Below, one piece after another: positions 1 to 55,507 of a stretch of 55,507 nt of DNA. Within the stretch, counting starts at the first letter, position 1; every line of letters starts with the position of its first letter. The notes beneath the pieces were generated by a model. The model searched no databases, had not been told where the DNA came from, and saw only the letters and a list, made by a program, of their open reading frames with translations. Source of the stretch: a candidate division WOR-3 bacterium. GTDB lineage: Bacteria; Hydrothermota; Hydrothermia; LBFQ01; DSFT01. Made by a program: the position numbers and the translations under genes. The stretch is from contig CBFGJN010000003.1 of the NCBI GenBank assembly GCA_965649115.1, forward strand, positions 1-55,507, in the 5' to 3' direction.

Positions 1-127
1 GATTTTATAGGGGGTTTTAATGGGAGGCAAAGCCGAAATATGGGTATTTTAAAGGCTCTGCCTTAATTTTAGTGTGGTTGAGCAAAATATAGAAATAACT
101 ATACTTTCCGAATTATTGGACAAAGCA
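1..127 (-). mobile_element. MITE-like repeat, copy A (cut by window edge)
   Basis: Ends AATTATTGGACAAAGCA (111-127); contains AAATATGGGTATTTTAAAGG and hairpin AAGGC-TCT-GCCTT shared with the other copies. Confidence 0.85.
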
Positions 128-149
128 CTAAAACAAAACATTTTTGCTT

Positions 150-155
150 TAAAAT
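150..155 (+). promoter_or_regulatory. -10-like box GCTT-TAAAAT
   Basis: 6 nt before ATG 162; 22 nt from the end of MITE A. Confidence 0.7.
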
Positions 156-161
156 TTAAAA

Positions 162-505
162 ATGACTGACTTAATAAAGCTTTATGAATTATTAAAAGAA
201 AAAATAGGAGAAGAAACTGCCAAACTTCTTGTTGATGCGATATCAAAAATTTATTCTAATGGATATATAAAGAATGAGCAATTTATTGAAGTAATGAGGA
301 CGATAGAAGGTAGGATAAAATCATTTGAGGATATGGTAAAATTTGAATTTTCAAACATGAAGCACAGAAGAATTTCGCTACAAAAGATGATATCAATAGA
401 CTTGAAAAGAGAACTGAAAGAATTGAAAAAATGATTTTAGGGCTTTCAATAACTATTATTTCAAGTATCTTGTTATACTTTCTTTCAAGAATATTTCTAC
501 CATAA
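162..505 (+). pseudogene. Frameshifted small coiled-coil protein with C-terminal TM helix (DUF1640-like architecture)
   Basis: ORF 162-434 continues in the -1 frame (open from 347) as HEAQKNFATKDDINRLEKRTERIEKMILGLSITIISSILLYFLSRIFLP* (TAA 503-505); one added nt near TCAAAC (351-356) restores a 114-aa ORF. Confidence 0.65.
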
Positions 506-540
506 GAGAAGGCTCCGCTCAAAAATTTTCTGAAAATATA

Positions 541-647
541 GATTTATTGGGGGGCTATAAGGGGGACGAAGTTTTTAAGCCGAAGGCTTAATTTTAGGTT
601 GGGCGGGGAAAGATAAGAAATAATCTATATTTCAAAAATATCGACAC
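541..647 (-). mobile_element. MITE-like repeat, degenerate copy B
   Basis: AAGCC-GAA-GGCTT hairpin, AGGTTGGGCGGGG tract, decayed end ...ATATCGACAC running into the next promoter. Confidence 0.7.
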
Positions 648-650
648 CTT

Positions 651-656
651 TAAAAT
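651..656 (+). promoter_or_regulatory. -10-like box CCTT-TAAAAT
   Basis: 7 nt before TTG 664. Confidence 0.65.
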
Positions 657-663
657 TTCAATC

Positions 664-2297: not shown

Positions 2298-4019
2298 CTA
2301 TTGAACAACAACTTTATAATTTTCTTTATTTATTCTAACAATATAAACACCTCTATTCACATTAAAGATAATATCATTTCCAACTTTTCTATCAATTAGA
2401 GAACCATTCACATTATATAATGAAATAACAGCGCCTTTATCCATAGTCTTAACCTTAATTTGACCTTTCAAAGCAGTTATAGAATAATTAGAACTCTTAG
2501 AAATTTCAGAAACATCAACAACAATTAGAGTATCTTGGAATTGACCATTGCTATAAGATACGCCTTCCTTAGCTAACCAATTATATGAACCAGTAGTGGC
2601 ACCGGCACTTAAAGCATTGCAGTGTATATCAGTTGAACCATCTTGAGGACTTAAATAAGCAATAATAAGTGTATCTTGATTTGTTATTGAAAGATCTCTC
2701 GAGCCTACTCTTGCTGGCCATACGAAATCTTCAAGCTTATTAGGATTATTATTCCAATTTACTTTCCTTAAACCCCAGCTACTTCCACCGTCATTACTAG
2801 CAATATAGAAAATATCTTTTGGGGAATTTGTAGTTCTATTTGTTCCACAACCTGAATTCGTTGAATCAGTCCATTGAACAAAGAGGATAACAATTTTATT
2901 ATCTCCATTTATTGCTAACTTAGGTTGATGAGCAAATGGAAGTTTATCTTGAACACTATTATTAAACCAAGGTGCCCATATCCATTGTTTAATAGGTTTC
3001 GTCCAATCTATATTACCACTAGCAGTTCTTGTATATTTTTGTAGGACTAAAATGTGAGAAACTGTCGTATCATTATATGGAACAGGTGATTCTTGAAGTG
3101 AATAGAGAACATAAACATAATTTGATGTAAATCTGACATCTATATCAAAAAGTGAGCTAAATGTTTTACCTACTATTGTAAATGCATAAAGAGCAAGTGT
3201 ATCAATAAGGTTAGCACTAGCGGGATCTGGATTTGTTGTTCCATCTTTTCTAATTAAGAAATATCCAACTTTGTTTTGGGTAGGACTTCCAGCTGTGTTA
3301 TCAAGACCAACGACATAAACTGAATCACCGCTTATATCAACTGCATATGGTGAAATACCAAAGTTAGTAGTTGGATCTCTAACAGCAATAGGAGAACCTA
3401 TTAAAGCATTACTTATTGCATCATAAAAACCAAGATAAACAGCATATGTACTTGCTGTGAATCCTATAAAAGCAAATGTATCATTACCCACTTTATAACC
3501 TATACTTCTATATGTTCCAAGGTTACCAGTAGCAACGGGTGGGCTACCAACTTTACCTATGGACATATTACCCCAGTTACCACCAACTAATTCTGGCCAT
3601 GAGCAAACGGGTGTTCCATTTGATGTAAAGCCAACAGCACTTGGATACCTACCATTTGAATTTCCATTTATATTACCAGCTGTATTCCAGGTTTGCCCCC
3701 TATTATAACTCCAAGCGGCTCCAACTCTTCCAGAACCGCCAGCGGGATCTACTCTTCTAAAGCAAAAGAGAATGCTATCACCATTAGCAGAAACATAAAC
3801 AGGTTTGTGAAGTGTTGAAAGCAAACCATATTGATTTACTGAACTATCCTTATATATATCAACAAAAGCAAACGTTTGAGCAGGATTCTTGGGATTGTAG
3901 TAGGAAACTCCCCTTTCAACATAGCCATATACTCTATTTAGCTTTGACAGATCAGCTTTTCCAGAAACTTGGGCACCCTTTACAAGTGCCATCTTGCTTA
4001 TCAAAATCAGCTCCATCAT
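2298..4019 (-). CDS. Secreted protein with Asp-box/BNR-like motifs and T9SS-type C-terminal domain
   Basis: SYNRGQTW and SNDGGSSW Asp-box-like motifs; C-terminus ISLYNVNG...RGVYIVRI..YKVVV; SD GGAGG. Confidence 0.65.
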   Translation of the reverse strand: MMELILISKMALVKGAQVSGKADLSKLNRVYGYVERGVSYYNPKNPAQTFAFVDIYKDSSVNQYGLLSTLHKPVYVSANGDSILFCFRRVDPAGGSGRVGAAWSYNRGQTWNTAGNINGNSNGRYPSAVGFTSNGTPVCSWPELVGGNWGNMSIGKVGSPPVATGNLGTYRSIGYKVGNDTFAFIGFTASTYAVYLGFYDAISNALIGSPIAVRDPTTNFGISPYAVDISGDSVYVVGLDNTAGSPTQNKVGYFLIRKDGTTNPDPASANLIDTLALYAFTIVGKTFSSLFDIDVRFTSNYVYVLYSLQESPVPYNDTTVSHILVLQKYTRTASGNIDWTKPIKQWIWAPWFNNSVQDKLPFAHQPKLAINGDNKIVILFVQWTDSTNSGCGTNRTTNSPKDIFYIASNDGGSSWGLRKVNWNNNPNKLEDFVWPARVGSRDLSITNQDTLIIAYLSPQDGSTDIHCNALSAGATTGSYNWLAKEGVSYSNGQFQDTLIVVDVSEISKSSNYSITALKGQIKVKTMDKGAVISLYNVNGSLIDRKVGNDIIFNVNRGVYIVRINKENYKVVVQ

Positions 4020-4034
4020 CCTCCTTACCTCCTT

Positions 4035-4982
4035 TTAAGGTTGTGTAGATAAAAACTCATAAAATTTTGATTTTATAGCACTTTGGTTATTATAAACCCA
4101 ACGTACATCATTTTTTATGTTACTTCCCCAATTATTATATGGCCAAGTTGAATAAACATCATGTAGTAAATTCGTTAAATTATAATAAAGCTCCAATTTA
4201 TATAAAATTCTTGCAAGATTAAAAACATTATCTGAATTTTTAAACCTTTTTACAATCCTTGGATTTAATGAATTTATAGGATTTGTAAAATATGCTAAAT
4301 AACCATATACCATAGCTTGACCAGGATTATCACTCAAATAACCCAAACCTGATGATAGAATAATGATATTCCAAAGCAAACTATCAATATCTTTAAGTGT
4401 AGGATTTGATACAGAATATATAATTGTATCATTTGCTTTTGGTAAATCACTTTGCTTAACATTACTATTTTGATCTAACACATGTGTAAAAGGTATTATA
4501 ATTTTATTTCTATTAAATGCATAAATAGATTTGAGTGAATTATTTAGGAATATGGAAGAAACTTCAAGAATTGGAGTATCAGATATTTGAATATAGTAAT
4601 AACCGAAATAAACACTATCATTTCCAACTTTTTGAGCGGATATTAAAATTGTATCGGGCATAGCGTTTAAAATAATTTTATTTACAACTTTCTTTAATGG
4701 TGGTTCTCCTTGTGCAAAAACTCCAGAGGATGAAAGGGAAAAAGCTTCTTGATATAAGGATAAAGAAGCGGAAGATAAGGCATTTCCATAATAAGCTTCC
4801 CTATCTTTACTATTTATTGAAAGTGCCTCAGAAAATAAATTCCTTGCTTTTGAAAACTCAAAAATTGAATAATTTCTCCAAGCTTCATTCATAATATCAT
4901 CATAGGTAATGGGTGTCTCAGATGGCGTTTTTTTAGCGGAGCAACCTAAAATTAGAAATGAAATAAAGATAAGTCTTTTCAT
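4035..4982 (-). CDS. Lipoprotein with N-terminal TPR-like repeats
   Basis: Lipobox LILGC; AWRNY..ARNLFSEAL..EAYYGNA helical repeat; SD AAGGAGG. Confidence 0.65.
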   Translation of the reverse strand: MKRLIFISFLILGCSAKKTPSETPITYDDIMNEAWRNYSIFEFSKARNLFSEALSINSKDREAYYGNALSSASLSLYQEAFSLSSSGVFAQGEPPLKKVVNKIILNAMPDTILISAQKVGNDSVYFGYYYIQISDTPILEVSSIFLNNSLKSIYAFNRNKIIIPFTHVLDQNSNVKQSDLPKANDTIIYSVSNPTLKDIDSLLWNIIILSSGLGYLSDNPGQAMVYGYLAYFTNPINSLNPRIVKRFKNSDNVFNLARILYKLELYYNLTNLLHDVYSTWPYNNWGSNIKNDVRWVYNNQSAIKSKFYEFLSTQP

Positions 4983-4994
4983 ACCCTAACCTCC

Positions 4995-7202
4995 TTAATT
5001 TATAACTTGCTTAAATCTAAACTTCTCTCCACTATACATAATCTCAAAGACATAAACACCTTTCTTAATAGGAATTTCAATAACATTTAAACCAACACTT
5101 AAATCCCTATCAAAATTATAAATTACTCTACCATTAACATCAAAAATCCTAATTTTAACATTACTATAAGACGGAAGTGTAAGAAGAAGGTTTTTATTCT
5201 CTACTTTGAAAGAAAAGTTATAAATAGGTTTTCCATTGGATACCTTATAATAACCACTACCGTTGAATTTCGCCATTAAATATCCATTTTCATAATAAGT
5301 AGTCAAAGGTTGATTTTCATAATAGATAATCTCATTATTTGAACCTTTTATATAAATATAGCCATCAAACTTAGCGTTGGAGAATATATAAAAACCTTCC
5401 GAAGTTCTCTTAACAATAACTGGATATTCTACATTATCATTATTCTTTATCTTTAAAAGACCATTATAAAGTAAAATAGTAGATTGAGGAGATAAATAAT
5501 CCAATTTTATCGTATCAGATGGATAAGTAGATGGGATATTATCAAATTTATCACGAAGATTAATAACAGAAAATATATAATCACCTTTTTGAACCTTAGA
5601 AAGAAGAATTTTTCCATAATAGACAATATCAGTTACCGTTTCTAATTCATCCAATTCTATTAGAGGCTTATATATTGGATCAGGCGTAGATAATTGAACA
5701 TAAGCTTTTGAACACTTACCAACATCAACGCATAACAAATCATTTGCTAATAGAAAAACTTCAAATGTATTTAATGAAAACTTATTTGGTAGTACAAAGA
5801 AAGAAGAAATTGTAGGAGGGGTTGTATCATTTATTGCGTATCTTATTTCAACTTTTATCTGATCTAAATTTATCATGAATAATCTTTCTCTTCCTCTTCT
5901 TAAACTATCAACTTTAAGTTTCAATGGATTTGTTGAAAGCTCAGAAACAGTTTTTGAAAGCGTATCAATTTTAAAAACTTTTATCTTTGAACTATCTATC
6001 CAATTCCAAACAATAGGTTTATTTGCTCCTGTGATTGCAGTAACAACGAAACCCTCTGCCGCATAAATAGGAAGAGAAAGCCACCTATCATTGTCAGCAC
6101 CACCAACACCTTTAAATATAGGAGATGTCCCTGTCCAAGGATATATCTCCTTATTCTGCAAGAAAGAATTTGAATAATTATATCCATAACCTTTTGAATT
6201 TAATAAATTTTTCAAATGGAACTCAACAATATAACTCTTAATTAAACTATCTGGAAATAAACTATAAAATTTATCGTAATTATCTGTTATCTTATTTTTC
6301 AAAGCACTTGCATCTTTCTCTTCAAGAAAATTAAACCAAAGATATGAAATTTGTGCTTGCGGGTCATCAAGTGTATTTGCCAAGTTAACCTGATTTATGT
6401 AAGGCACCGTAGGATTTATAGCAATGTTATACTTAAAAGTAGCATCAATTTGATCATTTACTACATAAAGCAAGTTTCTTGTATTACCTTGTCTAAAACC
6501 ATAGAACAATGAAGTATCATTTGAAGCTTTGGAGGCTAAGTAATATGCAATTTGAGAACGAGCAAAGTTATCCTCATTAGGTTTATAACTATACAAGACA
6601 TAATTTGTATATAAGAAATATAAAGCTTTCTTTAAGGAGTTTCTATTAAAGGACTTGGTACAATCACCATCAGATGAGCTTTCAGATGTTAAAACACTTG
6701 CACAATTTAGAACAATATATTCATGTCTTGGATATGGTGTACTTAGGGAATAATAAGGATCAAAATAACCAACAACATTATTTGGATTAACTAAACCCAA
6801 AGCATCACTAACATAAAAGCCACCAAGCACAACAAAAATTCTCGGATCATTATCAGAATCAAGAAAATTAGGACTATAACCAAAGTAATTAGTTAAATAG
6901 TTATCAACAGTTGGTTTAATTTGACTAAATAAAGTGTCTATGAGATTCGCTATTTTAACTGCAGTGTCAGGAGGAATAATGTACTTCTTAGGTATTTCCT
7001 GAATATAAACTGTGTCCATTGTAAGAACATAAATATAAGGAGTTTTTAAAATTACACGAGCATAACCACTATCCGAAGCTTCTATATAATCTTTTCTGAA
7101 TGTAAGCGAAAAATATGTAAGTGGAACTTGAACCCTATCACCAACATTAAGCTCAGCACTTGCTATTGAAAAAAATGAAAGAAATATAAAAAGCTTTCTC
7201 AT
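4995..7202 (-). CDS. Secreted metallopeptidase-fold protein lacking HEXXH, with T9SS-type CTD
   Basis: Signal peptide MRKLFIFLSFFSIASA; DSDNDPRIFVVL..VGYFDP..EYIVLN; C-terminus IRIFDVNGR..KGVYVFEI; SD AAGGAGG. Confidence 0.6.
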   Translation of the reverse strand: MRKLFIFLSFFSIASAELNVGDRVQVPLTYFSLTFRKDYIEASDSGYARVILKTPYIYVLTMDTVYIQEIPKKYIIPPDTAVKIANLIDTLFSQIKPTVDNYLTNYFGYSPNFLDSDNDPRIFVVLGGFYVSDALGLVNPNNVVGYFDPYYSLSTPYPRHEYIVLNCASVLTSESSSDGDCTKSFNRNSLKKALYFLYTNYVLYSYKPNEDNFARSQIAYYLASKASNDTSLFYGFRQGNTRNLLYVVNDQIDATFKYNIAINPTVPYINQVNLANTLDDPQAQISYLWFNFLEEKDASALKNKITDNYDKFYSLFPDSLIKSYIVEFHLKNLLNSKGYGYNYSNSFLQNKEIYPWTGTSPIFKGVGGADNDRWLSLPIYAAEGFVVTAITGANKPIVWNWIDSSKIKVFKIDTLSKTVSELSTNPLKLKVDSLRRGRERLFMINLDQIKVEIRYAINDTTPPTISSFFVLPNKFSLNTFEVFLLANDLLCVDVGKCSKAYVQLSTPDPIYKPLIELDELETVTDIVYYGKILLSKVQKGDYIFSVINLRDKFDNIPSTYPSDTIKLDYLSPQSTILLYNGLLKIKNNDNVEYPVIVKRTSEGFYIFSNAKFDGYIYIKGSNNEIIYYENQPLTTYYENGYLMAKFNGSGYYKVSNGKPIYNFSFKVENKNLLLTLPSYSNVKIRIFDVNGRVIYNFDRDLSVGLNVIEIPIKKGVYVFEIMYSGEKFRFKQVIN

Positions 7203-7218
7203 AACTTAAAAACCTCCT

Positions 7219-8193: not shown

Positions 8194-8203
8194 TACTAAC
8201 CTC

Positions 8204-16024: not shown

Positions 16025-16206
16025 TAATGTGTCTAGTAATTTTGAAAATATAATTATTTCTATATTTTGCCCACCCATCCTATATTCAAGGCCTCGCCTC
16101 TAAAAACTACGCCCCCCTTAAACCCCCCCGTAAAATTAACAATTTTCTTAAAATTTTTATAAGTCGTTGATAATCAATTATTTAGCATTATTTACTAGAC
16201 AAAGCA
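16025..16206 (+). mobile_element. MITE-like repeat, copy D
   Basis: TAATGTGTCTAGTAAT...TTTACTAGACAAAGCA; GCCCACCCATCC; flanks TAGGCTTAA / TAGCTTTAA (7/9, possible decayed TSD). Confidence 0.85.
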
Positions 16207-16212: not shown

Positions 16213-16309
16213 TAATGTGTCTAATAATTCTAAAAATATGATTATTTCTTATTTTCCCCACCCTAAATACAAGGCTTAGCTTTGAAATTCGCATTAATCC
16301 TCCAAAGCA
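16213..16309 (+). mobile_element. MITE-like repeat, truncated tandem copy E
   Basis: TAATGTGTCTAATAATTC left end (same variant as D), CCCCACCCT, AAGGCTTAGCTTT. Confidence 0.7.
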
Positions 16310-18481: not shown

Positions 18482-18620
18482 TGCTGTGTCTAGTAATTCT
18501 GAAATTATTATTGTTTCTTATTTTCTCCCACCCTACGAAATAAGCCTTCGGCTTATAACTTTGCCCCCCGTTAAACACCATATAAAAACTATTATTTCAA
18601 AAAATTCTTCACAAATCAAC
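18482..18620 (+). mobile_element. MITE-like repeat, copy F (right end decayed)
   Basis: TGCTGTGTCTAGTAATTCTGAAA, CCCACCCT, AAGCC-TTC-GGCTT, GCCCCCC. Confidence 0.8.
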
Positions 18621-22132: not shown

Positions 22133-22245
22133 TGATGAGTCTAGTAATTCTGGAAACATATATTTTTCCCACCCACCCTATGAATAAGCCTTCGGCTTAT
22201 AAATGCCCATTTTTCGGCCTAGGGGGGCTTTGCCCCCCATAAAAT
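22133..22245 (+). mobile_element. MITE-like repeat, copy G (left two-thirds)
   Basis: TGATGAGTCTAGTAATTC, CCCACCCACCCT, AAGCC-TTC-GGCTT, GGGGGGC-TTT-GCCCCCC. Confidence 0.85.
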
Positions 22246-22265
22246 CTTTAACTGAATTTATGAGG

Positions 22266-22305
22266 GAATTTTAGGGTGGATGGGGAAGTAAAGAAGAATA
22301 GATAA
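22266..22305 (-). mobile_element. MITE fragment in opposite orientation to G
   Basis: ATTTTAGGGTGGATGGGGAAGTAAAGAAGAATA matches the reverse complement of the element left arm. Confidence 0.6.
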
Positions 22306-23309: not shown

Positions 23310-23320
23310 ATAGAATATAA

Positions 23321-23430
23321 CCCACCCTATAAATAAGATTTCAGCTTATAAAAACCCCAATTTTTGCCTCGGAGGCTTCGGCAGGGGGCTAACACACCCC
23401 CTTAAAAACTCCCTATAAAAACCATAATTT
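23321..23430 (+). mobile_element. MITE-like repeat, degenerate internal copy H
   Basis: CCCACCCTATAAATAAGATTTCAGCTT..AAAACCCCAATTTTTGCC..GGGGGCTAACACACCCCC; no TIRs. Confidence 0.65.
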
Positions 23431-23464
23431 CAATTGGCTTGTAAATATGGATTTTTCTTACCTT

Positions 23465-25451: not shown

Positions 25452-25567
25452 TGCTGTGTCTAGTAAAAGGCTTAATTTTATAGGGGGTTATTTGAGGGGG
25501 CGTAGCCCCCTACTGAAAATAGGGTGGGTGGGAGAAATATAGAAAAATAGGTATTCGACAAATAGCA
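25452..25567 (-). mobile_element. MITE-like repeat, short copy I1
   Basis: TGCTGTGTCTAGTAA...GGGGGC-GTA-GCCCCC...AGGGTGGGTGGG...GACAAATAGCA. Confidence 0.75.
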
Positions 25568-25600: not shown

Positions 25601-25752
25601 CATTTATAAAGTTATTGATTTAATGGGGAATTTTAGTGGGGCAAAGCCCCCCCATGGCATAAAAATGGGTATTTTAAAGCCGAAGGCTTAAATATAGGGT
25701 GGGTGGGAAAAATATAGTAAAATAAATAGTTTTGGAATTACTAGACAAAGCA
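25601..25752 (-). mobile_element. MITE-like repeat, copy I2
   Basis: GGGGC-AAA-GCCCC, AATGGGTATTTTAAAGCC-GAA-GGCTT, AGGGTGGGTGGG, GAATTACTAGACAAAGCA. Confidence 0.85.
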
Positions 25753-27681: not shown

Positions 27682-27687
27682 ATTTTA
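27682..27687 (-). promoter_or_regulatory. -10-like box GCTT-TAAAAT
   Basis: 11 nt before mnmA ATG. Confidence 0.55.
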
Positions 27688-27692
27688 AAGCA

Positions 27693-27834
27693 TTTATTTT
27701 TCCTTATTTTGCCCGCCCACCCTGAAAATAGGGAGCTTTACCCCCCTATAATCCCCCATAAAATCAATAGTTTTATTGAAATTTTCGTAAGTCATTGATA
27801 ATCAAGCATTTAGCAATGATTACTGGACAAAGCA
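27693..27834 (+). mobile_element. MITE-like repeat, copy J (left TIR lost, internal deletion)
   Basis: GCCCGCCCACCCTGAAAATA..CCCCCCTATAATCCCCCATAAAATCAATA..TTGATAATCAA..ATTACTGGACAAAGCA; nearly identical to copy O. Confidence 0.8.
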
Positions 27835-27854
27835 CTTAAAAACCCCTTTTTATA

Positions 27855-27945
27855 GTAAAGCCTATGACTTTAAAATACCTATACTTTTGCCTCGTAGGGC
27901 TCTACCCCTATAACCGAAAAAAGACTCAATAAAATGGGCATTTAT
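27855..27945 (+). repeat. Degenerate MITE fragment
   Basis: TAAAGCCTATGACTTTAAAATACCTATACTTTTGCC..GTAGGGCTCTACCCCT. Confidence 0.55.
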
Positions 27946-32768: not shown

Positions 32769-32780
32769 TTTTGTTATGAA

Positions 32781-32786
32781 ATTTTA
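32781..32786 (-). promoter_or_regulatory. -10-like box CCTT-TAAAAT
   Basis: 12 nt before ATG 32768; 22 nt from MITE K. Confidence 0.6.
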
Positions 32787-32808
32787 AAGGATTTAATTAA
32801 ATGAATTC

Positions 32809-33013
32809 TGCTGTGTCCAATAATTCTGAAAGTATTTATTTTATTATGTTTTCCCCACCCACCCTGAAATAAAGGCTACGCCTTTAAAATACCCATATTT
32901 CGGCTTTGGGGGGCCTCGCCCCCCTTAAAAACCCCCTTTAAATCAATAATTCTCTTAAAATTTTTGTAAGTTGTTGATAATCAATAACTTAACACTATTT
33001 ATTGGACAAAGCA
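32809..33013 (+). mobile_element. Full-length MITE-like element, copy K (205 bp)
   Basis: TIRs TGCTGTGTCCAATAA / TTATTGGACAAAGCA; hairpins 32871-32885 and 32908-32924; dyad 32968-32990. Confidence 0.92.
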
Positions 33014-37423: not shown

Positions 37424-37627
37424 TGCTGTGTCTAGTAATTCTAAAAACTATTTATTTTACTATATTTTCCCACCCACCCTGAAATTAAGCTTTCAGCTTA
37501 AAAATACCCATTCTTATGCCTTGGGGGGCTTCGCCCCCCATTAAACCCCCGTAAAATCAATAATTCCAATAAAATTTTTATAAGATATTGATTATCAATT
37601 ACTTAACACTATTTATTGGACAAAGCA
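37424..37627 (+). mobile_element. Full-length MITE-like element, copy L (204 bp)
   Basis: TGCTGTGTCTAGTAAT...TTATTGGACAAAGCA; AAGCT-TTC-AGCTT; GGGGGGC-TTC-GCCCCCC. Confidence 0.92.
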
Positions 37628-37635: not shown

Positions 37636-37815
37636 TGCTTTGTCTAGTAATTCTAAAATTATGATTATTTCTATCTTTCCCCACCCACCCTAATAATAAG
37701 CCTTCGGCTTGAAAATATCCATATTTCGGCAGAGGGGGCAAAAATCAATAATTTCCTTTAAATTTTTATAAGTTATTGATTGTCAAGCATTTAAAACTAT
37801 TTACTAGACAAAGCA
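37636..37815 (+). mobile_element. MITE-like element, copy M (tandem with L)
   Basis: TGCTTTGTCTAGTAA / TTACTAGACAAAGCA perfect 15-bp TIR; 8 bp from L; L+M flanked by TAATTTTTT direct repeats. Confidence 0.92.
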
Positions 37816-42564: not shown

Positions 42565-42575
42565 TAATTTTCAAA

Positions 42576-42581
42576 AGTTTA
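42576..42581 (-). promoter_or_regulatory. -10-like box CCTT-TAAACT
   Basis: 11 nt before manC ATG. Confidence 0.55.
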
Positions 42582-42653
42582 AAGGTTTATTGATAGAATT
42601 TTTTTCTTTTATTAGGGCTTTTTCCAATAAATAAGGCATTTTTTTCTTAACTT

Positions 42654-42659
42654 TAAAAT
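42654..42659 (+). promoter_or_regulatory. -10-like box ACTT-TAAAAT
   Basis: 7 nt before GTG 42667. Confidence 0.65.
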
Positions 42660-42666
42660 TTTCAAA

Positions 42667-45764: not shown

Positions 45765-45929
45765 TGCTGTGTCTAGTAATTCTGAAATATAGATTATTTC
45801 TTATTTTGCCCGCCCACCCTGAAAATAAGGCTTCGCCCCCCTATAATCCCCCATAAAATCAATAATTTCTTTAAAAATTTTATAAGTTATTGATAATCAA
45901 GGATTTAACAATAATTATTGGACAAAGCA
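45765..45929 (+). mobile_element. MITE-like element, copy O (165 bp) with perfect 9-bp TSD
   Basis: CTTATAAAT|TGCTGTGTCTAGTAAT...ATTATTGGACAAAGCA|CTTATAAAT. Confidence 0.95.
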
Positions 45930-45951: not shown

Positions 45952-45958
45952 TTCAATA

Positions 45959-47812: not shown

Positions 47813-47860
47813 TTAATCAGGTAAAGAAAAAATTCCACTCATTAAAATTCCTGACAAACC

Positions 47861-48529: not shown

Positions 48530-48535
48530 ATTGAA

Positions 48536-48541
48536 ATTTTA
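48536..48541 (-). promoter_or_regulatory. -10-like box ACTT-TAAAAT
   Basis: 6 nt before ATG 48529. Confidence 0.7.
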
Positions 48542-48564
48542 AAGTTTAGAGAATTATTGCAAGG

Positions 48565-48589
48565 ACTTTCAGAATTATTAGACATAGCA
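48565..48589 (-). repeat. Solo MITE left-end fragment
   Basis: Reverse complement TGCTATGTCTAATAATTCTGAAAGT matches the start of copy K. Confidence 0.7.
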
Positions 48590-48605
48590 CACACCATTTA
48601 AAAAT

Positions 48606-48784
48606 TGCTTTGTCTAGTAAATAATATTAAGTTGCTGATTAATTATGAATTTTACGGGGGGACTTTATGGGGGGCAGAGCCCCCCACTGCCGAAAAATGG
48701 GCATTTTAAAGCCGTAGGCTTTAATTTTGGGCGGGTGGGGAAAACATAGAAAAATAAATAGTATCAGAATTATTGGACAAAACA
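48606..48784 (-). mobile_element. MITE-like element, copy P with perfect 9-bp TSD
   Basis: TTTAAAAAT|TGCTTTGTCTAGTAA...TTATTGGACAAAACA|TTTAAAAAT; GGGGGGC-AGA-GCCCCCC; AAAGCC-GTA-GGCTTT. Confidence 0.92.
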
Positions 48785-48799
48785 TTTAAAAATCACCTT

Positions 48800-48805
48800 T
48801 AAACT
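48800..48805 (+). promoter_or_regulatory. -10-like box CCTT-TAAACT
   Basis: 5 nt before TTG 48811 (or 8 nt before TTG 48814). Confidence 0.6.
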
Positions 48806-48810
48806 TTCAA

Positions 48811-49518
48811 TTGTTGATAATTTTCCTTTTATTTGACTTACCAAATGACCCAAAAACATTATATGAAGTTGCATTAAATGAATTTAAAAACAAAAATTAT
48901 AAGCAAGCTGAAAAAATTTTAAAAAGAATTATTTATTCGTTTTCACCTAATGAATGGACTGATAAAGCACAGTTTTATTTAGCACTTTTATATTATGAAA
49001 TAAAAAATTATGAACTTGCAAAGATTGAAGCAGAATTCTTTGTAAATAATTTTAAATATAGTGAATTTTATCCAAATGGTTTAATTTTACTTGCAAAAAT
49101 TTATTATAAATTATCACCAAATCCACATAAAGATATATCTGAACTTAACAAAGCAATTGAAATTTTAAATAGAGTTAAAACATTGTATCCAAGTTATAGT
49201 CAATCAGCTGATAGTATAATGTTCCTAATTAGAAAAAAATTTGCCCAAAAAATTTTAATTTCTGCCAATGTTTATAGAAACATTGAAAAACCAAAATCAG
49301 AAGCAATTTACCTTGAATACTACTTAAATAATTACATTGATATTGAACCTGATTCAGTAGCATATAGACTACTTGAAATATACGAAACTTTAAATGAAAA
49401 AGAAAAAATTATTAATTTAACTGAATTAATTCTCAAAGGTGATAATTTTTCTTCATGGATAAAAAAAGTAGCCCTTGAGAAACGAGATAAATATGGCTAT
49501 CGCTCTGATAGGAGGTAG
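48811..49518 (+). CDS. bamD: Outer membrane protein assembly factor BamD
   Basis: TPR pattern LYEVALNEFKNKNY..DKAQFYLA..FVNNFKYS; KFAQKILISANVY; no lipobox visible. Confidence 0.8.
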   Translation: MLIIFLLFDLPNDPKTLYEVALNEFKNKNYKQAEKILKRIIYSFSPNEWTDKAQFYLALLYYEIKNYELAKIEAEFFVNNFKYSEFYPNGLILLAKIYYKLSPNPHKDISELNKAIEILNRVKTLYPSYSQSADSIMFLIRKKFAQKILISANVYRNIEKPKSEAIYLEYYLNNYIDIEPDSVAYRLLEIYETLNEKEKIINLTELILKGDNFSSWIKKVALEKRDKYGYRSDRR

Positions 49519-50065
49519 ATTTGATCCAATTCATATTGGGCATCTTATTATAGCAGAAGATTTATTAGAGATTTTAAATGTTGAAAAAGTTATATTTCTT
49601 TTAAGTCATAATCCACCGCATAAAGTTGTTTATTCAAGCTTTGAAGATAGATTTAACATGATAAAAATAGCTATCAATAACTATAAAAAATTTGAAGTTT
49701 GGGATATTGAAAAAAGAATGAATTTAGAAAAAAGTTATAGTTTTTTAGTACTAAAAGAAATTTTAAGGATAGGTTATAAAAATTTATACTTTGTAATAGG
49801 TTCAGATCAATTTGAAAACTTTAAAAGTTGGTATAATTACGAGGAGATTCTTAATATGGTTAATGTTGTTGTTGTTCAAAGACCTTCAAAAAATTATAAC
49901 TATCCAAGAGAATTATTAAACAAAGTCAAAATTTTAAATAATAGATTAATTGAAGTTTCATCGTCGGAAATTAGGAAAAGAATTAAAGAAAATAGAGAGT
50001 TTAAATTTCTTGTTCCTTATGGTGTTTATGAGTATATTATAGAGAAAAAATTGTACCTTATTTGA
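49493..50065 (+). CDS. nadD: Nicotinate-nucleotide adenylyltransferase
   Basis: GGRFDPIHIGH, PPHK, FVIGSD, VSSSEIR; start moved to MAIAL. Confidence 0.93.
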   Translation: MAIALIGGRFDPIHIGHLIIAEDLLEILNVEKVIFLLSHNPPHKVVYSSFEDRFNMIKIAINNYKKFEVWDIEKRMNLEKSYSFLVLKEILRIGYKNLYFVIGSDQFENFKSWYNYEEILNMVNVVVVQRPSKNYNYPRELLNKVKILNNRLIEVSSSEIRKRIKENREFKFLVPYGVYEYIIEKKLYLI

Positions 50066-50084
50066 AATTGAAGCATTTAAATTT

Positions 50085-50260
50085 GGCTTTGTTCAGCGAT
50101 TATTGTTAAGTATGATAATCAATCACCTATAAAAAATTCGCTAAAATGCTTGAAATAATGGAGTGAATTTAGGGGGAGCGGAGCTCCCATAGCCGAAATA
50201 TGGGTATTTATAAAGCTCCGCTTTATTTCGTAGGGTGGGTGAGCAAAATCATAATTACTT
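50085..50260 (-). mobile_element. MITE-like repeat, degenerate copy Q
   Basis: GGCTTTGTTCAGCGAT end, TGATAATCAA, GGGAGC-GGA-GCTCCC, AAATATGGGTAT, AAAGC-TCC-GCTTT, AGGGTGGGTG. Confidence 0.8.
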
Positions 50261-50270
50261 TTATGTCCTT

Positions 50271-50276
50271 TAAACT
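50271..50276 (+). promoter_or_regulatory. -10-like box CCTT-TAAACT
   Basis: 8 nt before gyrB ATG. Confidence 0.65.
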
Positions 50277-50284
50277 TTTGATAT

Positions 50285-52192
50285 ATGCAAATGTTTGATT
50301 ACACTGCTGAAAGTATAAAAAGATTAAAGGGATTAGAAGGTGTTAGAAAAAGACCCGCAATGTACATTGGTGATGTTGGTAAAAAAGGTTTTCATCATTT
50401 AGCTTTTGAAATAATAGATAATGCAATTGATGAGGTGCTTGCTGGATTTGCAAATTATGTAAAAGTAGTAATTCATAAAGATAATAGCGTCTCAGTTGAA
50501 GATAATGGAAGAGGAATACCTATTGATATTCATCCAGAAACAGGAACACCAGCAGTTGAAGTTGTATTTATGGAACTTCACGCAGGTGGTAAATTTGAAA
50601 GGAATATATATAAAATTTCGGGAGGGCTTCATGGTGTTGGAGCAAGTGTAGTTAATGCTTTATCTGAATGGACAGAAGTTTTTGTGAAAAGAAATGGAAA
50701 TTTATATAGAATGAAATTTTCAAGAGGTAAGAAAGTAGAGGATTTAAAAATTGTTTCAAAGGCAAATGGGACAGGGACTATTGTTAGATTTAAACCTGAT
50801 AAGGAGATATTTACAGATTACCCTAAACTTGAATTTGATTATGACTATATTGCTAATCGTTTAAGAGAAATTGCATTTTTAGTTCCAAATGTAAAAATTG
50901 AACTTATTGATGAAAGAACAAATAAGAGAGAGATTTTTCACTATCCAAGAGGTATAGTAGATTTTATTGATTACATTGATATTTCAAGAAAACACATTAC
51001 ACCAACATTTTGGACAAAATTTACAAATAACAGTGAAGAATTTATGGAAATTGAAATAGCACTTGCATATAATGAAGGTTATGATGAAGTCATAATTTCA
51101 TTTGTAAATACAGTTAATACTAAGGAGGGAGGAACTCATGTAACGGGATTTAAAAGTGCCTTAACCAAAGCAATTAATGATATAGGAAGAAAAATGAATT
51201 TAATAAAGAAAGAACCATTACAGGGTGAAGATGTTAGAGAAGGATTGACTGCCATAATTCATGCAAAACTTTCCAATCCTATATTTGAAGGTCAAACGAA
51301 GATAAAACTTGGAAATGATAGTGTTAGAAGTTTTGTAGAAGTAAATTTTTATGAAAAGTTTTCAAGATTTTTAGAGGAAAATCCAAAAATTGCTCAAATT
51401 ATAATAAACAAAGCATTAGAAAACCAAAAAGCAAGACTTGCTGCTAAAAAAGCAAAGGAAATTGTTAGAAGAAAGAGTTTTATTGAAAATGATAGTCTTC
51501 CAGGAAAATTAGCTGATTGTATAACGAAAGAAAGGGAAAGAGCTGAATTGTTTATCGTTGAAGGTGAGAGTGCGGGAGGTTCTGCTAAACAAGGTAGAAA
51601 TAGAGAATTTCAAGCGATATTACCATTAAAAGGTAAAATTTTAAATGTTGAAAAGAAAGGTTTAGATAAAGCATTAGATAATGAAGAATTAAAAACAATT
51701 ATTTCTGCTCTTGGTTGTGGAATAAAGGAAAATTGTAATCCAAATGAATGTAGATATGGCAAAATTATTATTATGACTGATGCGGATATAGATGGTGCCC
51801 ATATTAGAACATTATTACTCACTTTATTTTATAGATATTTTTATAATCTTATTGAAGCAGGAATGGTTTATATAGCTCAACCTCCTCTATATAGGATTCA
51901 AAAAGGCAAAATTATAAAATATGCTTATTCAGATGAAGAATTAAGTAAAATTTTAAAGGAAATAGGTTCAGAAAATGTTATGATTCAAAGGTATAAGGGT
52001 CTTGGAGAAATGAATCCTGAACAACTTTGGGAAACAACGATGAATCCAAAAACAAGAGTTTTAAAAAAAATTACTATTGAAGATGCAGCTGAGGCTGAAA
52101 GGTGGGTTTCGGTATGTATGGGTCTTGATGTATCGCCAAGAAAAGAATTTATTGAAAAATATGCTTTAAGTATTAAGGAACTTGATATATGA
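50285..52192 (+). CDS. gyrB: DNA gyrase / type II topoisomerase subunit B
   Basis: RKRPAMYIG, EIIDNAIDE, DNGRGIP, GGLHGVG, VEGESAGG, TDADIDG, YKGLGEM, C-terminal ELDI. Confidence 0.93.
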   Translation: MQMFDYTAESIKRLKGLEGVRKRPAMYIGDVGKKGFHHLAFEIIDNAIDEVLAGFANYVKVVIHKDNSVSVEDNGRGIPIDIHPETGTPAVEVVFMELHAGGKFERNIYKISGGLHGVGASVVNALSEWTEVFVKRNGNLYRMKFSRGKKVEDLKIVSKANGTGTIVRFKPDKEIFTDYPKLEFDYDYIANRLREIAFLVPNVKIELIDERTNKREIFHYPRGIVDFIDYIDISRKHITPTFWTKFTNNSEEFMEIEIALAYNEGYDEVIISFVNTVNTKEGGTHVTGFKSALTKAINDIGRKMNLIKKEPLQGEDVREGLTAIIHAKLSNPIFEGQTKIKLGNDSVRSFVEVNFYEKFSRFLEENPKIAQIIINKALENQKARLAAKKAKEIVRRKSFIENDSLPGKLADCITKERERAELFIVEGESAGGSAKQGRNREFQAILPLKGKILNVEKKGLDKALDNEELKTIISALGCGIKENCNPNECRYGKIIIMTDADIDGAHIRTLLLTLFYRYFYNLIEAGMVYIAQPPLYRIQKGKIIKYAYSDEELSKILKEIGSENVMIQRYKGLGEMNPEQLWETTMNPKTRVLKKITIEDAAEAERWVSVCMGLDVSPRKEFIEKYALSIKELDI

Positions 52193-52407
52193 ATTATAGA
52201 GAGCTAATTGAAATTATGAATGGAATTAAAGATTTATATGAAAGAATAAAAAAGTTTCATCAAACTACAAAAAGGACACTTTTTTTAGTGGAAACGAGAT
52301 TGAGATTCAAACTTTGTTCAATTTTAGTTATTTTAGTTTTAAATTTAACAATAACCTTGTTAATGCTATGGATTTTAATAAAACTTTTGGGGATAGTGAG
52401 AAGTTAA
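52189..52407 (+). CDS. Small protein: coiled-coil-like N-terminus plus C-terminal TM helix
   Basis: ATGA overlap with the gyrB stop; hydrophobic ILVILVLNLTITLLMLWILIKLLG. Confidence 0.5.
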   Translation: MNYRELIEIMNGIKDLYERIKKFHQTTKRTLFLVETRLRFKLCSILVILVLNLTITLLMLWILIKLLGIVRS

Positions 52408-53510
52408 GAATTAGATATTTTGAAATTGAAGAGTTTGAAGATGGATATAGAGTTATTGATCCTTTTGGATTTTTTGAAGATTTATTTTTTACAAAAGAAG
52501 CATTATATTTAATTAGTTTGTTTGATGGAACAAGAACAATAGACCAAGTAAAATTAGATTTTTTTAAAGCTACAAATATAATGCTTTCTGATAGTGAGAT
52601 ATTGAATTTTATAAACCAAATGGATAACTACTATTTATTTTATAATGAGAAATTTATAAACAGGTTCGAAGAAGAGAGAAAAAAAATTTTAGATTTGGAA
52701 TATAAACCCATTGAAATGATTGAAAATATAAGTCAGGTTAAAAACTTCATTAAGCAAAATCTAACTGATGACTTTGAAAATGATATAATTGCTTTAATTG
52801 TTCCACATATTGATTTAAGAATAGCTATGGATACCTATCTAAAAACTTACTCAAAAATTAAAAATTTAAAAAGAAAAATTTTTATTATATTTGGAGTTGC
52901 TCATTCTGTCCATTTAACACCATTTTCAATATTTCCTAAAAACTACTTTACTGATAGAATCGTAAAAGTTAATAACGAAATTATAGAAAAAATTAGAAAT
53001 TTGTTTGGTTATGATATTCATTTTGATGTACTAGCTTATAGAGATGAACATTCAGTTGAATTTCCAATTTTATTCATTGATAGTTTATTTGAAGAATTTT
53101 CAATAATTCCATCAATTATTGCTTATGCTAATAATAAGGAGGACTTAAAAACAATTGCTTATAGAATATACGAAGTTATTAGAAACTATAAAGATGAGAT
53201 ATTTTTAATATCAAGTATTGATTTAAGTCACGTTGGAAAAAAATTTGGTGATAGTGAATATTATAACCCAAAGGAAATTGATATGGAATATATTAAATAT
53301 ATTTTAGAATTTGAAAATGATAAGGCTTTTGAATTTTTAAAAAATTCTCAAAATCAAACGAGAATTGATGGACAATTTACAAATTATGTATTTCTTGAAA
53401 TTTTAAAATTATTAAATGTTAAAAAATCTCAAATTATTGAATATAAAAATTATTATGAGGAATTGACGGATTCAGGTGTTAGCTATTGCTCTATTAGTTT
53501 TCATATCTAA
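52368..53510 (+). CDS. AmmeMemoRadiSam system protein B (MEMO1 family) with N-terminal extension
   Basis: IVPHID, GVAH, EHSVEFPILF, SSIDLSHVG; start uncertain (ATG 52368 vs TTG 52314). Confidence 0.82.
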   Translation: MDFNKTFGDSEKLRIRYFEIEEFEDGYRVIDPFGFFEDLFFTKEALYLISLFDGTRTIDQVKLDFFKATNIMLSDSEILNFINQMDNYYLFYNEKFINRFEEERKKILDLEYKPIEMIENISQVKNFIKQNLTDDFENDIIALIVPHIDLRIAMDTYLKTYSKIKNLKRKIFIIFGVAHSVHLTPFSIFPKNYFTDRIVKVNNEIIEKIRNLFGYDIHFDVLAYRDEHSVEFPILFIDSLFEEFSIIPSIIAYANNKEDLKTIAYRIYEVIRNYKDEIFLISSIDLSHVGKKFGDSEYYNPKEIDMEYIKYILEFENDKAFEFLKNSQNQTRIDGQFTNYVFLEILKLLNVKKSQIIEYKNYYEELTDSGVSYCSISFHI

Positions 53511-54053
53511 AATCCACACTTCTCCATTCTTTTGCTTGTAATTCCAAAATAATTTCCAATCTAAATTGTTCAAAATAAAAAATATAATACCATTTGTAAG
53601 TTGATGTCCAACAATTAGGACATTTTCGTAGTTTTTACTTTCCAAATCTTCTAAAAATGCTCTTGCTCTACTAACAACTTGTAAAAATGTCTCTCCGTTT
53701 GGGGGATTATATAAGAATGGATTTTCTCTTACTTTAATGAAAAATTCTTTATTTTCATTAATAATAACAGAAGATTTCTTCCCTTCCCAATCACCCATAT
53801 TTTGCTCCCTTAAACGATTATCTAAAATAATTGAACTTTTATATTTGTTTATTTTGTTTATAATTTCAGAAGTTTGAATAGCTCTTTTTAGATCAGAAGA
53901 ATATATAACATCAAACTTTATATCTTTCAATTTTTCTCCTAATTCAATTGATTGTTTTATTCCGTTTTCATTTAATTCAAGATCAGTCCATCCTTGAATT
54001 AAATCATTTAAGTTGTAATCCGTTTGACCGTGACGAACTAAGTAAATTTTCAT
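53472..54053 (-). CDS. Histidine phosphatase (PGM-like) family
   Basis: LVRHGQT, SSDLKRA, LREQNMGDWEG, VGH. Confidence 0.92.
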   Translation of the reverse strand: MKIYLVRHGQTDYNLNDLIQGWTDLELNENGIKQSIELGEKLKDIKFDVIYSSDLKRAIQTSEIINKINKYKSSIILDNRLREQNMGDWEGKKSSVIINENKEFFIKVRENPFLYNPPNGETFLQVVSRARAFLEDLESKNYENVLIVGHQLTNGIIFFILNNLDWKLFWNYKQKNGEVWILDMKTNRAIANT

Positions 54054-55350
54054 AGTCCGAAAAGTTTAATGCTAAAATTCCATCTTTTAAATTATAAGCT
54101 TTAAATCCCATATTTCTCAATCTAATAGTTAAAGCATAGCTTTTTCTACCACTATTACAATATAAGACAATTTTATGAGTTTTCTTAAATTTAGATAAAT
54201 TTTTTAAATGTTTCTCAATTTCTTCTGATGGAATGTTAATTGAGTTTTCAATTTTAAGTTCATTCATTTCATCAGAACTTCTTACATCAATAATGATAAC
54301 ATTATTTTCTTTAAGCATTTCTTTAAGTTCATTATAATCAATTTCAATTTTTAAATCCTCTAATTTTTCTTTATATTCTTTAAGTTCTAAAACTCTCTTA
54401 CATTTTGAACATATTTCACTATTTGATGGCATTGAACAAATTGAACAAGCTTTAATATCTTCTAATTCTTCATTTAAGTTCTTTTCATATAGTGGAATAA
54501 TTTTTTTCCTAAAAATTGAAAGAAGTCTAAATTTAATATCAGGTTGTGTTTTTTCTAATTCATCAATCCAATTTTTGATTTGTTTTATTGTTGTTATTTC
54601 TCCATGAGGACAAGAACATTCTTGAACTGGAAGATCATTTAAACTAACATAATATAAGTCTTCAATTTCGGGTGTAGTTATTAAGGGTTTTATTTTTCTT
54701 GGATAACCATTTAAAAGTGGTTTTAAAACAGGTTTTAATTTTCTTATCCCTTCAAAATCACCACTTAAAAATAGGGACATCATTGTAGAAACAGTATCAT
54801 CTAAATTATGGCCTGTTGCTAATGCATTAGCATTTACTTTAACTGATAATAAAGTAAATATATTTCTTTTTATTGTTCCACAAACGGAACACATTTTGTC
54901 TTTGTACTTTGTAATCAGAAAGTCATCAATTGTATAACCTTCTTTCTCTTTAAGATTGTATATTTCTAATGGGATTTTTAAGTTTTCACAAAGTTTAATA
55001 ACTTTCTTTTCAAGATGGTCAGAATAGTACTTAATTCCGAGATTTATATAAAAAGCAAATATATCCTGTTCTTTAAAAGCCATTTTAAGCGCATGTAATA
55101 ATGCAACACTATCTTTACCTCCTGAGACTGCAACTGCAACTCTTTCATTTTTGTTGAACATTTTAAATTCTTCAACAACCCTTCTAATTCTATTTATAAA
55201 GAAATCATTAAAACAACTTTTACAAAACTTTTGTTTTGCATATCTAATTTCAATAATAGCACTATCTTTTTTACATCTTGAACATCTACCAATAGGTTCT
55301 AATTTTAATTTTATTCTACCAATTCCACATTTACCATAAAAAATTTCCAT
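54004..55350 (-). CDS. TtuA/TtcA-family tRNA thiolase fused to a C-terminal rhodanese domain
   Basis: Zn fingers CSRC..CKSC and CSIC..CSKC; PP-loop SGGKDS; CSVC; GHNLDD; rhodanese IDVR..VLYCNSGRKS. Confidence 0.85.
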   Translation of the reverse strand: MEIFYGKCGIGRIKLKLEPIGRCSRCKKDSAIIEIRYAKQKFCKSCFNDFFINRIRRVVEEFKMFNKNERVAVAVSGGKDSVALLHALKMAFKEQDIFAFYINLGIKYYSDHLEKKVIKLCENLKIPLEIYNLKEKEGYTIDDFLITKYKDKMCSVCGTIKRNIFTLLSVKVNANALATGHNLDDTVSTMMSLFLSGDFEGIRKLKPVLKPLLNGYPRKIKPLITTPEIEDLYYVSLNDLPVQECSCPHGEITTIKQIKNWIDELEKTQPDIKFRLLSIFRKKIIPLYEKNLNEELEDIKACSICSMPSNSEICSKCKRVLELKEYKEKLEDLKIEIDYNELKEMLKENNVIIIDVRSSDEMNELKIENSINIPSEEIEKHLKNLSKFKKTHKIVLYCNSGRKSYALTIRLRNMGFKAYNLKDGILALNFSDYENLLSSSRSNGLQLK

Positions 55351-55360
55351 AAGTTATAAA

Positions 55361-55366
55361 ATTTTA
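55361..55366 (-). promoter_or_regulatory. -10-like box ACTT-TAAAAT
   Basis: 10 nt before ATG 55350; 21 nt from the complete TIR at 55388. Confidence 0.6.
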
Positions 55367-55378
55367 AAGTTTAAAAAT

Positions 55379-55405
55379 TGCTTTGTCTGCCTTGTCCAAT
55401 AATTC
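55379..55405 (+). mobile_element. Doubled MITE-type terminus followed by non-MITE sequence
   Basis: TGCTTTGTC immediately followed by TGCCTTGTCCAATAATTC; the next 100 nt do not match the other copies. Confidence 0.65.
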
Positions 55406-55507
55406 CCCCTCTACCTTCCCTATGGATACCCCCACTATATTTTAACTCATCCCCTCCCATATCAACCCCTCAATCAGCCAAATTACTATAACTATAAAAA
55501 CTATTCA

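Follow-up and report, generated by a model that had tools for sequence, protein, structure and literature searches.

A miniature transposable element between genes

The window analyzed here (55,507 nucleotides) is one entire contig, C3, of the 1.85-Mb genome of a candidate division WOR-3 bacterium, which was available as 99 contigs with 27.6% G+C. Many of the gaps between its genes held copies of a short noncoding repeat with terminal inverted repeats (TIRs). An initial interpretation made from the DNA letters alone, hereafter the sequence-only reading, had reported about 20 such copies and proposed that they were non-autonomous MITEs (miniature inverted-repeat transposable elements). Our analyses support that proposal and, further, indicate that these approximately 205-bp MITEs are very probably moved in trans by a co-resident 1052-bp IS903-like insertion sequence (IS), landing at a fixed offset from host promoters and in a fixed orientation.

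Using nhmmer with a profile hidden Markov model built first from two copies (K and L) and then rebuilt on 164 full copies, we identified 19 matches in the window and 726 copies or fragments genome-wide. Together the latter comprised 97.9 kb, corresponding to 5.3% of the genome and to about 30% of the DNA outside crude open reading frame (ORF) calls. Among the 726 matches, 225 ran end to end, 453 had the left end, and 315 had the right end. The TIR, TGCTGTGTCYARTAAT, was itself found 23 times in the window when up to three mismatches were allowed, against 1.8 expected from shuffles. Copies K and L, which had been put forward as the full form, both spanned model positions 1–205, and the module order described for them was reproduced exactly by the 205-bp consensus: TIR, AT tract, CCCACCCACCCT, a hairpin (AAGCCTTCGGCTT), TAAAATACCCAT, a second hairpin (GGGGGGC-nnn-GCCCCCC), AATCAATAA, a dyad (TTGATAATCAA), and TIR. 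The two ends (TGCTGTGTCYARTAAT ... TTAYTRGACAAAGCA) agreed at 12 of the 16 outermost bases. Also as described, every window copy was located between ORFs; genome-wide, 1.6 of the 97.9 kb of element DNA overlapped crude ORF calls, and the inspected copies contained no ORF.

Median identity between copies was 78% and that to the nearest neighbor was 90% (maximum 100%), with some pairs being 98–100% identical. Hairpin stems were kept in 87–100% of copies while the loops varied, and one stem pair, which was C-G in 94 copies and G-C in 51, marked two subfamilies. Copy K folded better than its shuffles (z = -4.0). No terminator-like site was present in the consensus or in the copies scanned, and a scan of the whole window against Rfam returned no matches at the gathering score. 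The consensus also contained words resembling a host promoter motif (see below) at positions 74 and 145, and its positions 171–183 (AATCAATCACTTA) fit the consensus for integration host factor (WATCAANNNNTTR).

Target-site duplications and occupancy in related species

Exact 9-bp duplications flanked 75 of the 164 full copies, and in 11 more the flanks differed by a single base, such that 86 of 164 had at most one mismatch. In a shuffled control, in which the left flank of one copy was compared with the right flank of another, there were no exact matches and never fewer than three mismatches. The 9-bp duplications recurred in 11 of 23 copies from a sister species that also carries the MITE (G002), and overall the duplications were of 9 bp, sometimes 8 bp. 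Within the window, the flanks of the copy at 16028–16206 (TAGGCTTAA and TAGCTTTAA) agreed at seven of nine positions, and those of copy K (AATGAATTC and AATTTTTAA) showed no target duplication.

Among 64 genomes of the class, the TIR was abundant only in the source genome (G000; 820 matches) and in G002 (309 matches), the DNA of which is 88–90% identical. The three other species of the five in the genus (G001, G003, and G004) had background TIR counts and are referred to here as MITE-free congeners. Presence and absence of MITEs at orthologous positions differed in both directions between the two carriers, that is, occupancy in relatives was not identical, a point that the sequence-only reading had singled out for checking. 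Specifically, the gap at 42565–42666 was empty in the source genome and held two stacked copies in G002, and the copy at 45765–45929 had no counterpart at the G002 locus. The corresponding G002 region (C16:16704–17187, orthologous to window 45748–45959) held approximately 480 bp of unrelated sequence resembling a small gene that ends in ...IYENPELL. The K locus was of no use as a clean empty site, its two flanking genes being on separate contigs in all four congeners. More broadly, each operon-sized block of window positions 33000–52999 was on a different contig in G001, G003, and G004, one of which was assembled into only about 50 contigs, suggesting that gene order in the genus is heavily scrambled at operon boundaries.

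An IS903-like partner recovered from contig ends

Two sequences that did not belong to the MITE followed TIR-like ends, and each always ran into a contig end. The first, end A (TGCCTTGTCCAATAATTCCCCC...), was identical at 16 contig ends, including the right edge of the window, and the second, end B (TGCTTTGTCCAATAAATAATG...), was found at 10. In seven of the 10 end B cases the flanking 9-mer matched, in reverse complement, an end A flank from a different contig, which indicates that the two are the sides of single insertions with 9-bp duplications. By this pairing, the right end of the window and contig C6:49961–50086 form two sides of one IS insertion (8–9-bp duplication GCTTTGTC), and the contig pairs C22-C1, C39-C20, C16-C38, C33-C83, C76-C88, and C43-C93 can likewise be joined by their IS flanks. 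The IS, present in at least 16 copies, thus accounts for 26 contig ends of the assembly. The sequence-only reading was correct that the window contains no transposase, yet the last 120 bases of the window belong to the autonomous partner, which is cut by the contig end.

End B opened an ORF (MGKVNWQEYNKELVRRGEIW...KRGRPYKYP) that aligned to the N-terminal part of the transposase of IS903B (E = 6e-6). A metagenome scan with the 56-amino acid (aa) end B peptide exposed a relative (L103; 53% identical), which seeded a protein search that recovered P0027. This 300-aa protein shared 92–96% identity with the N-terminal peptide, and the 11 C-terminal residues read from end A were all the same in it. 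Nine public contigs contained P0027 within a 1052-bp element that had end B on one side and end A on the other. Relatives of P0027 were present in Aquificota and archaeal bins. The 300-aa DDE transposase is the only ORF of the IS. It scored 245 bits on the NCBIfam model NF033579 (cut-off 140), on which IS903B scored 356, and a Pfam scan restricted to P0027 identified the domains PF13737 and PF01609. Full-length BLASTP alignment to the IS903B transposase gave 27% identity (E = 1e-32).

The inverted repeat of IS903B is GGCTTTGTTGAATAAATC, and its insertions have a 9-bp direct repeat (PMC10569121); the repeat seen here (TGCTTTGTCCAATAAATA) is equal to it at 14 of 18 bases. Compared with GGCTTTGTTG-type terminal repeats, the first base was T rather than G, and positions 9–10 differed. 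The ends are like that of IS903 but equal to no described end with which they were compared. By its sequence, the parent IS appears to be a member of the IS5 family that is closest to the IS903 group. The P0027 transposase was without an NCBI or UniRef name and literature searches yielded nothing on it; the MITE/IS pair is likely undescribed.

Sequence common to the IS and the MITE was limited to approximately 26 nt on the end B side, where the transposase starts, and approximately 18 nt on the end A side, and the MITE is therefore not a simple deletion derivative of the IS. The body of the IS was not recovered in the genome bin; searches of all five genus genomes with PF01609 and PF05598 were empty, and scanning JGI metagenomes for exact words from the 5′ region of the IS produced no match. 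Taken together, the target duplications, the noncoding content, the partner IS with common termini, and the variable occupancy between two carrier species establish the 205-bp repeat as a true, non-autonomous MITE.

A promoter motif of the host

Insertion sites were connected to an 11-bp word, CTTTAAAATTT, of which there were 573 exact copies in the genome versus about 20 expected from base composition. It was positioned mostly 4–9 nt ahead of start codons and was also found 5–18 nt upstream of 32 of the 45 transfer RNA (tRNA) genes, which identifies it as a signal for transcription rather than for translation. Genome-wide motif statistics exposed no conservation upstream of it, and a -35 element is therefore lacking. 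The motif was enriched in all five genus genomes, including the MITE-free ones. Based on these positional statistics, we interpret CTTTAAAATTT as the -10-only promoter of the host, and its transcripts are probably leaderless or nearly so. The IS itself has a host-type promoter word (ATTTAAAATTT) at positions 53–63 (e.g., in L137), 4 nt before the transposase ATG, and thus appears to share the leaderless design of host genes.

For most tRNAs the motif had a two-peaked spacing, ending 6–7 or 12–13 nt upstream of the mature 5′ end. Several tRNA promoters had a MITE or IS inserted at the usual offsets, namely those for Asn and Lys (C2), Thr (C6), Pro (C19), and Gln (C41).

Insertion at a fixed distance and orientation

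Of the 453 intact left ends, 106 abutted another copy and seven reached a contig end, leaving 340 for analysis of offsets. The motif, with at most one mismatch, was upstream of the left end in 249 of these 340 non-stacked copies (73%), as opposed to 2.4% of random positions. Relative to the left end, it started at -31 to -28 in 185 copies and at -24 to -20 in 61, with sharp peaks at -30 (133 copies), -29 (46), and -22 (32). Put differently, the left end was 19±1 or 11±1 bases upstream of CTTTAAAATTT, with the 9-bp duplication located between motif and element, while the 19 nt in between had no information content. Right ends displayed no motif preference, their flanks being scattered over all distances; orientation is therefore fixed, and the promoter-facing end is always the left end of the MITE, which corresponds to the end of the IS that is farther from the transposase start. 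The -29 class was often paired with 8-bp duplications, which leaves the cut 10 bp from the motif as the constant one. We saw no link between MITE subfamily and insertion register.

Exact-motif gene promoters bore an element in 133 of 407 cases, and both protein-gene and tRNA-gene promoters were used. The pattern was replicated in 382 kb of G002, where 27 of 46 left ends were at the fixed offsets, 15 were in stacks, and two were without the motif. Moreover, the complete IS behaved in the same manner as the MITE. The motif was at exactly -30 in 11 of 16 end A flanks and in none of the 10 end B flanks, and among public IS contigs with flank past end A, five of six had the motif at 18–19 nt. Targeting is hence a trait of the transposition machinery, not of the MITE interior. 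The IS copy at the right edge of the window was 18 nt away from the promoter motif of ORF 54004–55350, having inserted into a resident MITE within its first 9 bases; distance, rather than local sequence, sets the site.

Stacks, dimers and a cargo-bearing unit

There were 153 head-to-tail arrays, each of two to five copies. At complete junctions the spacer was 9 nt long in 94 of 106 cases, and it equaled the promoter-side 9-mer in 34 of 70 junctions, as expected from reuse of one target. In the window, the dimer formed by copies L and M (37424–37815) had TAATTTTTT on either flank and an 8-nt internal spacer (AGAGTTAG). The same spacer recurred (AGAGTTAGT) in a second dimer (C1:59266–59683) that had its own 9-bp duplication, ATTTTTTTG, indicating that dimers move as units.

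A 1426-bp unit at C11:31359–32784 had the left and right ends of the MITE, an exact 9-bp duplication (TATATCTTT), and the usual motif distance. One of its ORFs (246 aa) had no family match, and the other (66 aa) had a faint RelB-antitoxin-like match. We considered this unit as the autonomous partner and rejected it, as its two ORFs match no transposase family. It looks like cargo that was captured and moved by two MITE ends.

Features of the window

Coordinates of the window copies are collected in Table 1. The ORF at 45890–47218 was listed from a TTG inside a MITE; an ATG near 45960, directly after a CTTTAAAATTT motif, is the likelier true start. Apart from the MITEs, positions 2298–13730 (minus strand) held an operon for a SusC/RagA-like TonB-dependent receptor of 1085 aa and for several large proteins bearing type IX secretion system (T9SS) C-terminal sorting domains. 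A T9SS-tailed aminopeptidase was also present at 35415–37397. A GyrB had at most 57% identity to any entry of the genome collection.

Table 1. MITE copies, IS end, and related landmarks in the window; bit scores are from nhmmer, and motif positions are relative to the left end of the copy.
Coordinates	Strand	Feature	Model positions	Score (bits)	Motif	Remarks
2..127	-	MITE copy, cut by contig start	1-135	83.8	-30	Left end at 127, facing promoter of ORF 162-434
520..640	-	MITE fragment without ends	13-157	61.9		
16028..16206	+	Near-full MITE	4-205	137.8	-30	Left end faces promoter of ORF 15366-15986 (-)
16216..16294	+	MITE fragment	4-88	44.3		Stacked 9 nt past the 16028..16206 copy
18482..18617	+	MITE with intact left end	1-164	68.1	-30	Upstream of ORF 16924-18444 (-)
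22134..22246	+	MITE with intact left end	2-124	94.3	-29	Upstream of ORF 20905-22125 (-)
22220..22305	-	Weak MITE fragment	24-118	22.6		
23320..23435	+	MITE fragment without ends	49-149	45.9		
25459..25554	-	MITE fragment	24-151	31.7		
25603..25752	-	Off-target MITE, left end intact	1-150	118.2	None within 45 nt	
27685..27834	+	MITE with intact right end	19-205	99.7		
27851..27908	+	MITE fragment	57-114	21.7		
32779..32789	-	Host promoter motif CTTTAAAATTT, landmark of copy K				10 nt upstream of ATG of ORF 30984-32768; read directly
32809..33013	+	Copy K, full 205-bp MITE	1-205	198.2		Left end 19 nt from motif
37424..37627	+	Copy L, full MITE, promoter-proximal half of dimer	1-205	178.8	-22	Left end 11 nt from promoter motif of ORF 35415-37397
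37636..37815	+	Copy M, both ends, internal deletions, distal half of dimer		144.4		
42565..42666	.	Empty promoter site; two stacked MITEs in G002				Alignment with G002:C16
44501..44607	+	Degenerate MITE remnant between convergent genes		50.9		Orthologous G002 gap 13 bp
45765..45929	+	165-bp MITE, both ends, internal deletion		135.8	-30	Exact 9-bp duplication CTTATAAAT
48606..48784	-	179-bp MITE, both ends		136.7	-23	Upstream of ORF 48811-49518; exact 9-bp duplication ATTTTTAAA
50086..50250	-	MITE with intact right end	39-204	92.7		
55388..55507	+	IS terminal 120 bases (end distal to transposase start)				Continues on contig C6; same sequence at 16 contig ends

Proposed mechanism and recognition of the promoter

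The choice of target is nonrandom. The machinery integrates 10 bp past CTTTAAAATTT or, in fewer cases, 2 bp past it, with the element then starting 19 or 11 bp upstream. Such an insertion, at about -35, would leave the core promoter and both neighboring genes intact, and it may be harmless because the promoter lacks a -35 element. A landing site of this safety would explain how the family reached 5% of a compact genome. Repeated hits at the same site generate the head-to-tail stacks with 9-nt spacers, and dimers and the one cargo-bearing unit also move as single units. We regard the element itself as most likely selfish.

Promoter motifs were occupied in 33% of exact and 19% of one-mismatch cases, while motif copies located inside MITEs were never hit (0 of 16 exact, 0 of 140 with one mismatch), which leads us to favor a reading in which the functional context of the promoter is recognized, through bound RNA polymerase/sigma or a DNA state, over one in which the bare 11-mer is recognized. 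The unhit internal motifs may also reflect GC-rich surroundings, particular mismatches, or a younger age, a point that counts against this preference. It is possible, though less likely than not, that the transposase alone reads the 11-bp word and measures off 10 bp (or 2 bp) with no help from a host factor. The word is sharply defined, the offset is constant to within one base, the IS codes for a single protein, and IS903 has a target preference at the DNA level (WTTYA-N9-TRAAW; PMC2577343). That preference is symmetric around the duplication, whereas the landmark seen here is one-sided and 10 bp off; two registers 8 bp apart also fit a rigid protein-DNA ruler poorly, and the neglect of MITE-internal motifs likewise counts against direct reading. 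Within the favored functional context, we suggest, tentatively and with some doubt, that the single-protein IS903-like transposase docks on RNA polymerase/sigma at the -10-only promoter, or on the resulting DNA state, and integrates at its upstream edge, about -35, in one orientation. The use of both protein-gene and tRNA-gene promoters, the neglect of identical words inside MITEs, and the lack of signal in the intervening DNA are all compatible with this suggestion.

Alternative explanations for the insertion pattern

Insertion might instead be nearly random, with the observed pattern being what remains after purifying selection against hits in genes and core promoters. The genome is compact, at about 83% coding by crude ORF calls, with no copy in a gene, and motif copies in coding sequence were occupied in 0 of 31 cases, which selection alone would also bring about. 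Selection does not generate spikes at single bases as seen at -30, -29, and -22, however, and the scatter of right-end flanks is unlike a selection pattern. Nor does it explain an orientation bias of approximately 246 to 0, the reuse of the same 9-bp target in stacks, or the IS that sits within a resident MITE yet at the usual distance. We consider this account improbable.

We give still less credence to a domesticated, immobile intergenic repeat of the REP/BIME/ERIC type, acting as a terminator, insulator, or protein-binding array. The kept hairpin stems with variable loops, the C-G/G-C swap, the fold of copy K, and the location of copies between transcription units are in its favor. The swap concerns a single stem pair and, as a subfamily marker, is too thin a sign of selection on structure, and the scans for terminator-like sites and Rfam families were empty. 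Against immobility are the 9-bp duplications, the nearly identical copy pairs, the co-resident IS with matching ends that is identical at 16 contig ends, the difference in occupancy between sister species, and the absence of the family from three congeners. Finally, the idea of a mobile promoter cassette, in which CTTTAAAATTT belongs to the element and nothing is targeted, draws on the constant distance between motif and left end, the two motif-like words in the MITE consensus, and the one before the IS transposase gene, and can be all but dismissed given that the duplicated 9 bp lie between motif and TIR, the intervening 19 nt are not conserved, 460 of 643 motif-bearing promoters are without an element, the motif is equally enriched in G001, G003, and G004, and the empty site in the source genome retains the motif where G002 has two MITEs.

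Several observations weigh against promoter-directed transposition by the IS903-like machinery, or at least against its simplest form. Around 22% of non-stacked copies are away from any motif, so that the preference is strong and not absolute, and the two registers, being 8 bp apart, do not correspond to a helical repeat. About half of the full copies, K included, are without a clean duplication, for which later recombination between copies or decay is needed as an explanation. The public contigs that extend across the whole IS are without matching duplications, which we read as chimeric assembly across a multi-copy repeat, and as a consequence the evidence for IS duplications rests on the pairing of contig ends. 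The assignment of CTTTAAAATTT as a promoter is based on positional statistics, and the evidence base consists of static assemblies, all metagenome bins or short contigs, in which no transposition event was observed.

Comparison with known systems

The IS resembles IS903/IS903B in length (1052 bp versus approximately 1057 bp), in its single DDE transposase detected by NF033579, in its 9-bp duplications, and in part in its terminal repeats (14 of 18 bases). It differs in that the transposases are only 27% identical and the ends begin with TGC, not GGC as in IS903. The two also differ in target, in that IS903 prefers a loose palindrome around the duplication (PMC2577343), whereas the present IS has a host promoter motif as its one-sided landmark and inserts at a set distance from it in a set orientation. 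In Acinetobacter, MITEAba12 is a 113-bp element with 90 copies over 31 genomes that shows a preference for AT-rich sites with no recognizable target pattern; its 16-bp TIRs are common with those of co-resident insertion sequences that have IS903-like ends (GGCTTTGTTGCACAAA), and 9-bp duplications are kept in about 40% of cases (PMC6382973). The MITEAba12/ISAba12 pair is thus alike in being a short noncoding element that shares its ends with a co-resident IS and makes 9-bp duplications, and unlike in that the present family has 726 copies in one genome and promoter-linked targeting. The ISAba32 subgroup of the IS1202 family inserts at XerCD sites at a fixed distance (5 bp from the site) and orientation, with 5-bp duplications (bioRxiv 10.1101/2022.12.17.520857). 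Here too a DDE IS with a single transposase is positioned and oriented by a short site bound by host protein, although the family is a different one, the landmark is a recombination site, and it is the transposase-start end that faces the site, the opposite of what we observed.

Among more distant systems, Tn7 combines the target selector TnsD with TnsABC and uses one attTn7 site per genome. Tn7 also inserts in one orientation and at a fixed distance from a recognized host sequence without harm to a gene, whereas the IS has one 300-aa ORF, hundreds of sites, and no TnsC/D/E or CRISPR effector, and is similar in outcome without being a member. Ty3 of yeast and the TRE elements of Dictyostelium are eukaryotic retroelements tethered by TFIIIB/TFIIIC at RNA polymerase III genes. 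They share with the WOR-3 elements the use of the upstream edge of an initiation complex as a safe haven in a compact genome, the precise spacing, and the reuse of sites, but a tether is only proposed for the latter. Correia/NEMIS elements of Neisseria duplicate TA, often carry their own promoters, and have no known fixed relation to promoters. They too are abundant intergenic bacterial MITEs with internal structure and possible protein-binding sites. Repeats of the REP/BIME type differ in that duplications, a partner IS, and variable occupancy are all present here. Our literature searches yielded no report of promoter homing of this kind by a bacterial DDE insertion sequence or MITE, nor any work on the mobile elements of the present lineage.

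Implications

MITEs and IS903-like elements are ordinary. What sets this pair apart is the base-precise promoter distance and orientation, at hundreds of sites per genome, achieved with one small transposase, making it a clear example from nature of bacterial safe-haven targeting. The pair illustrates how 5% of transposon DNA can be tolerated in a compact genome of 1.85 Mb, and it accounts for the breaks in the assembly at 26 contig ends. Because the element marks promoters, it also provides, for an uncultured lineage, an inherent map of where transcription units lie. If recognition is protein-guided, it could inspire compact tools that insert DNA beside promoters, and docking on the polymerase, if true, would make this bacterial DNA transposon a counterpart of Ty3, which integrates at genes for RNA polymerase III.

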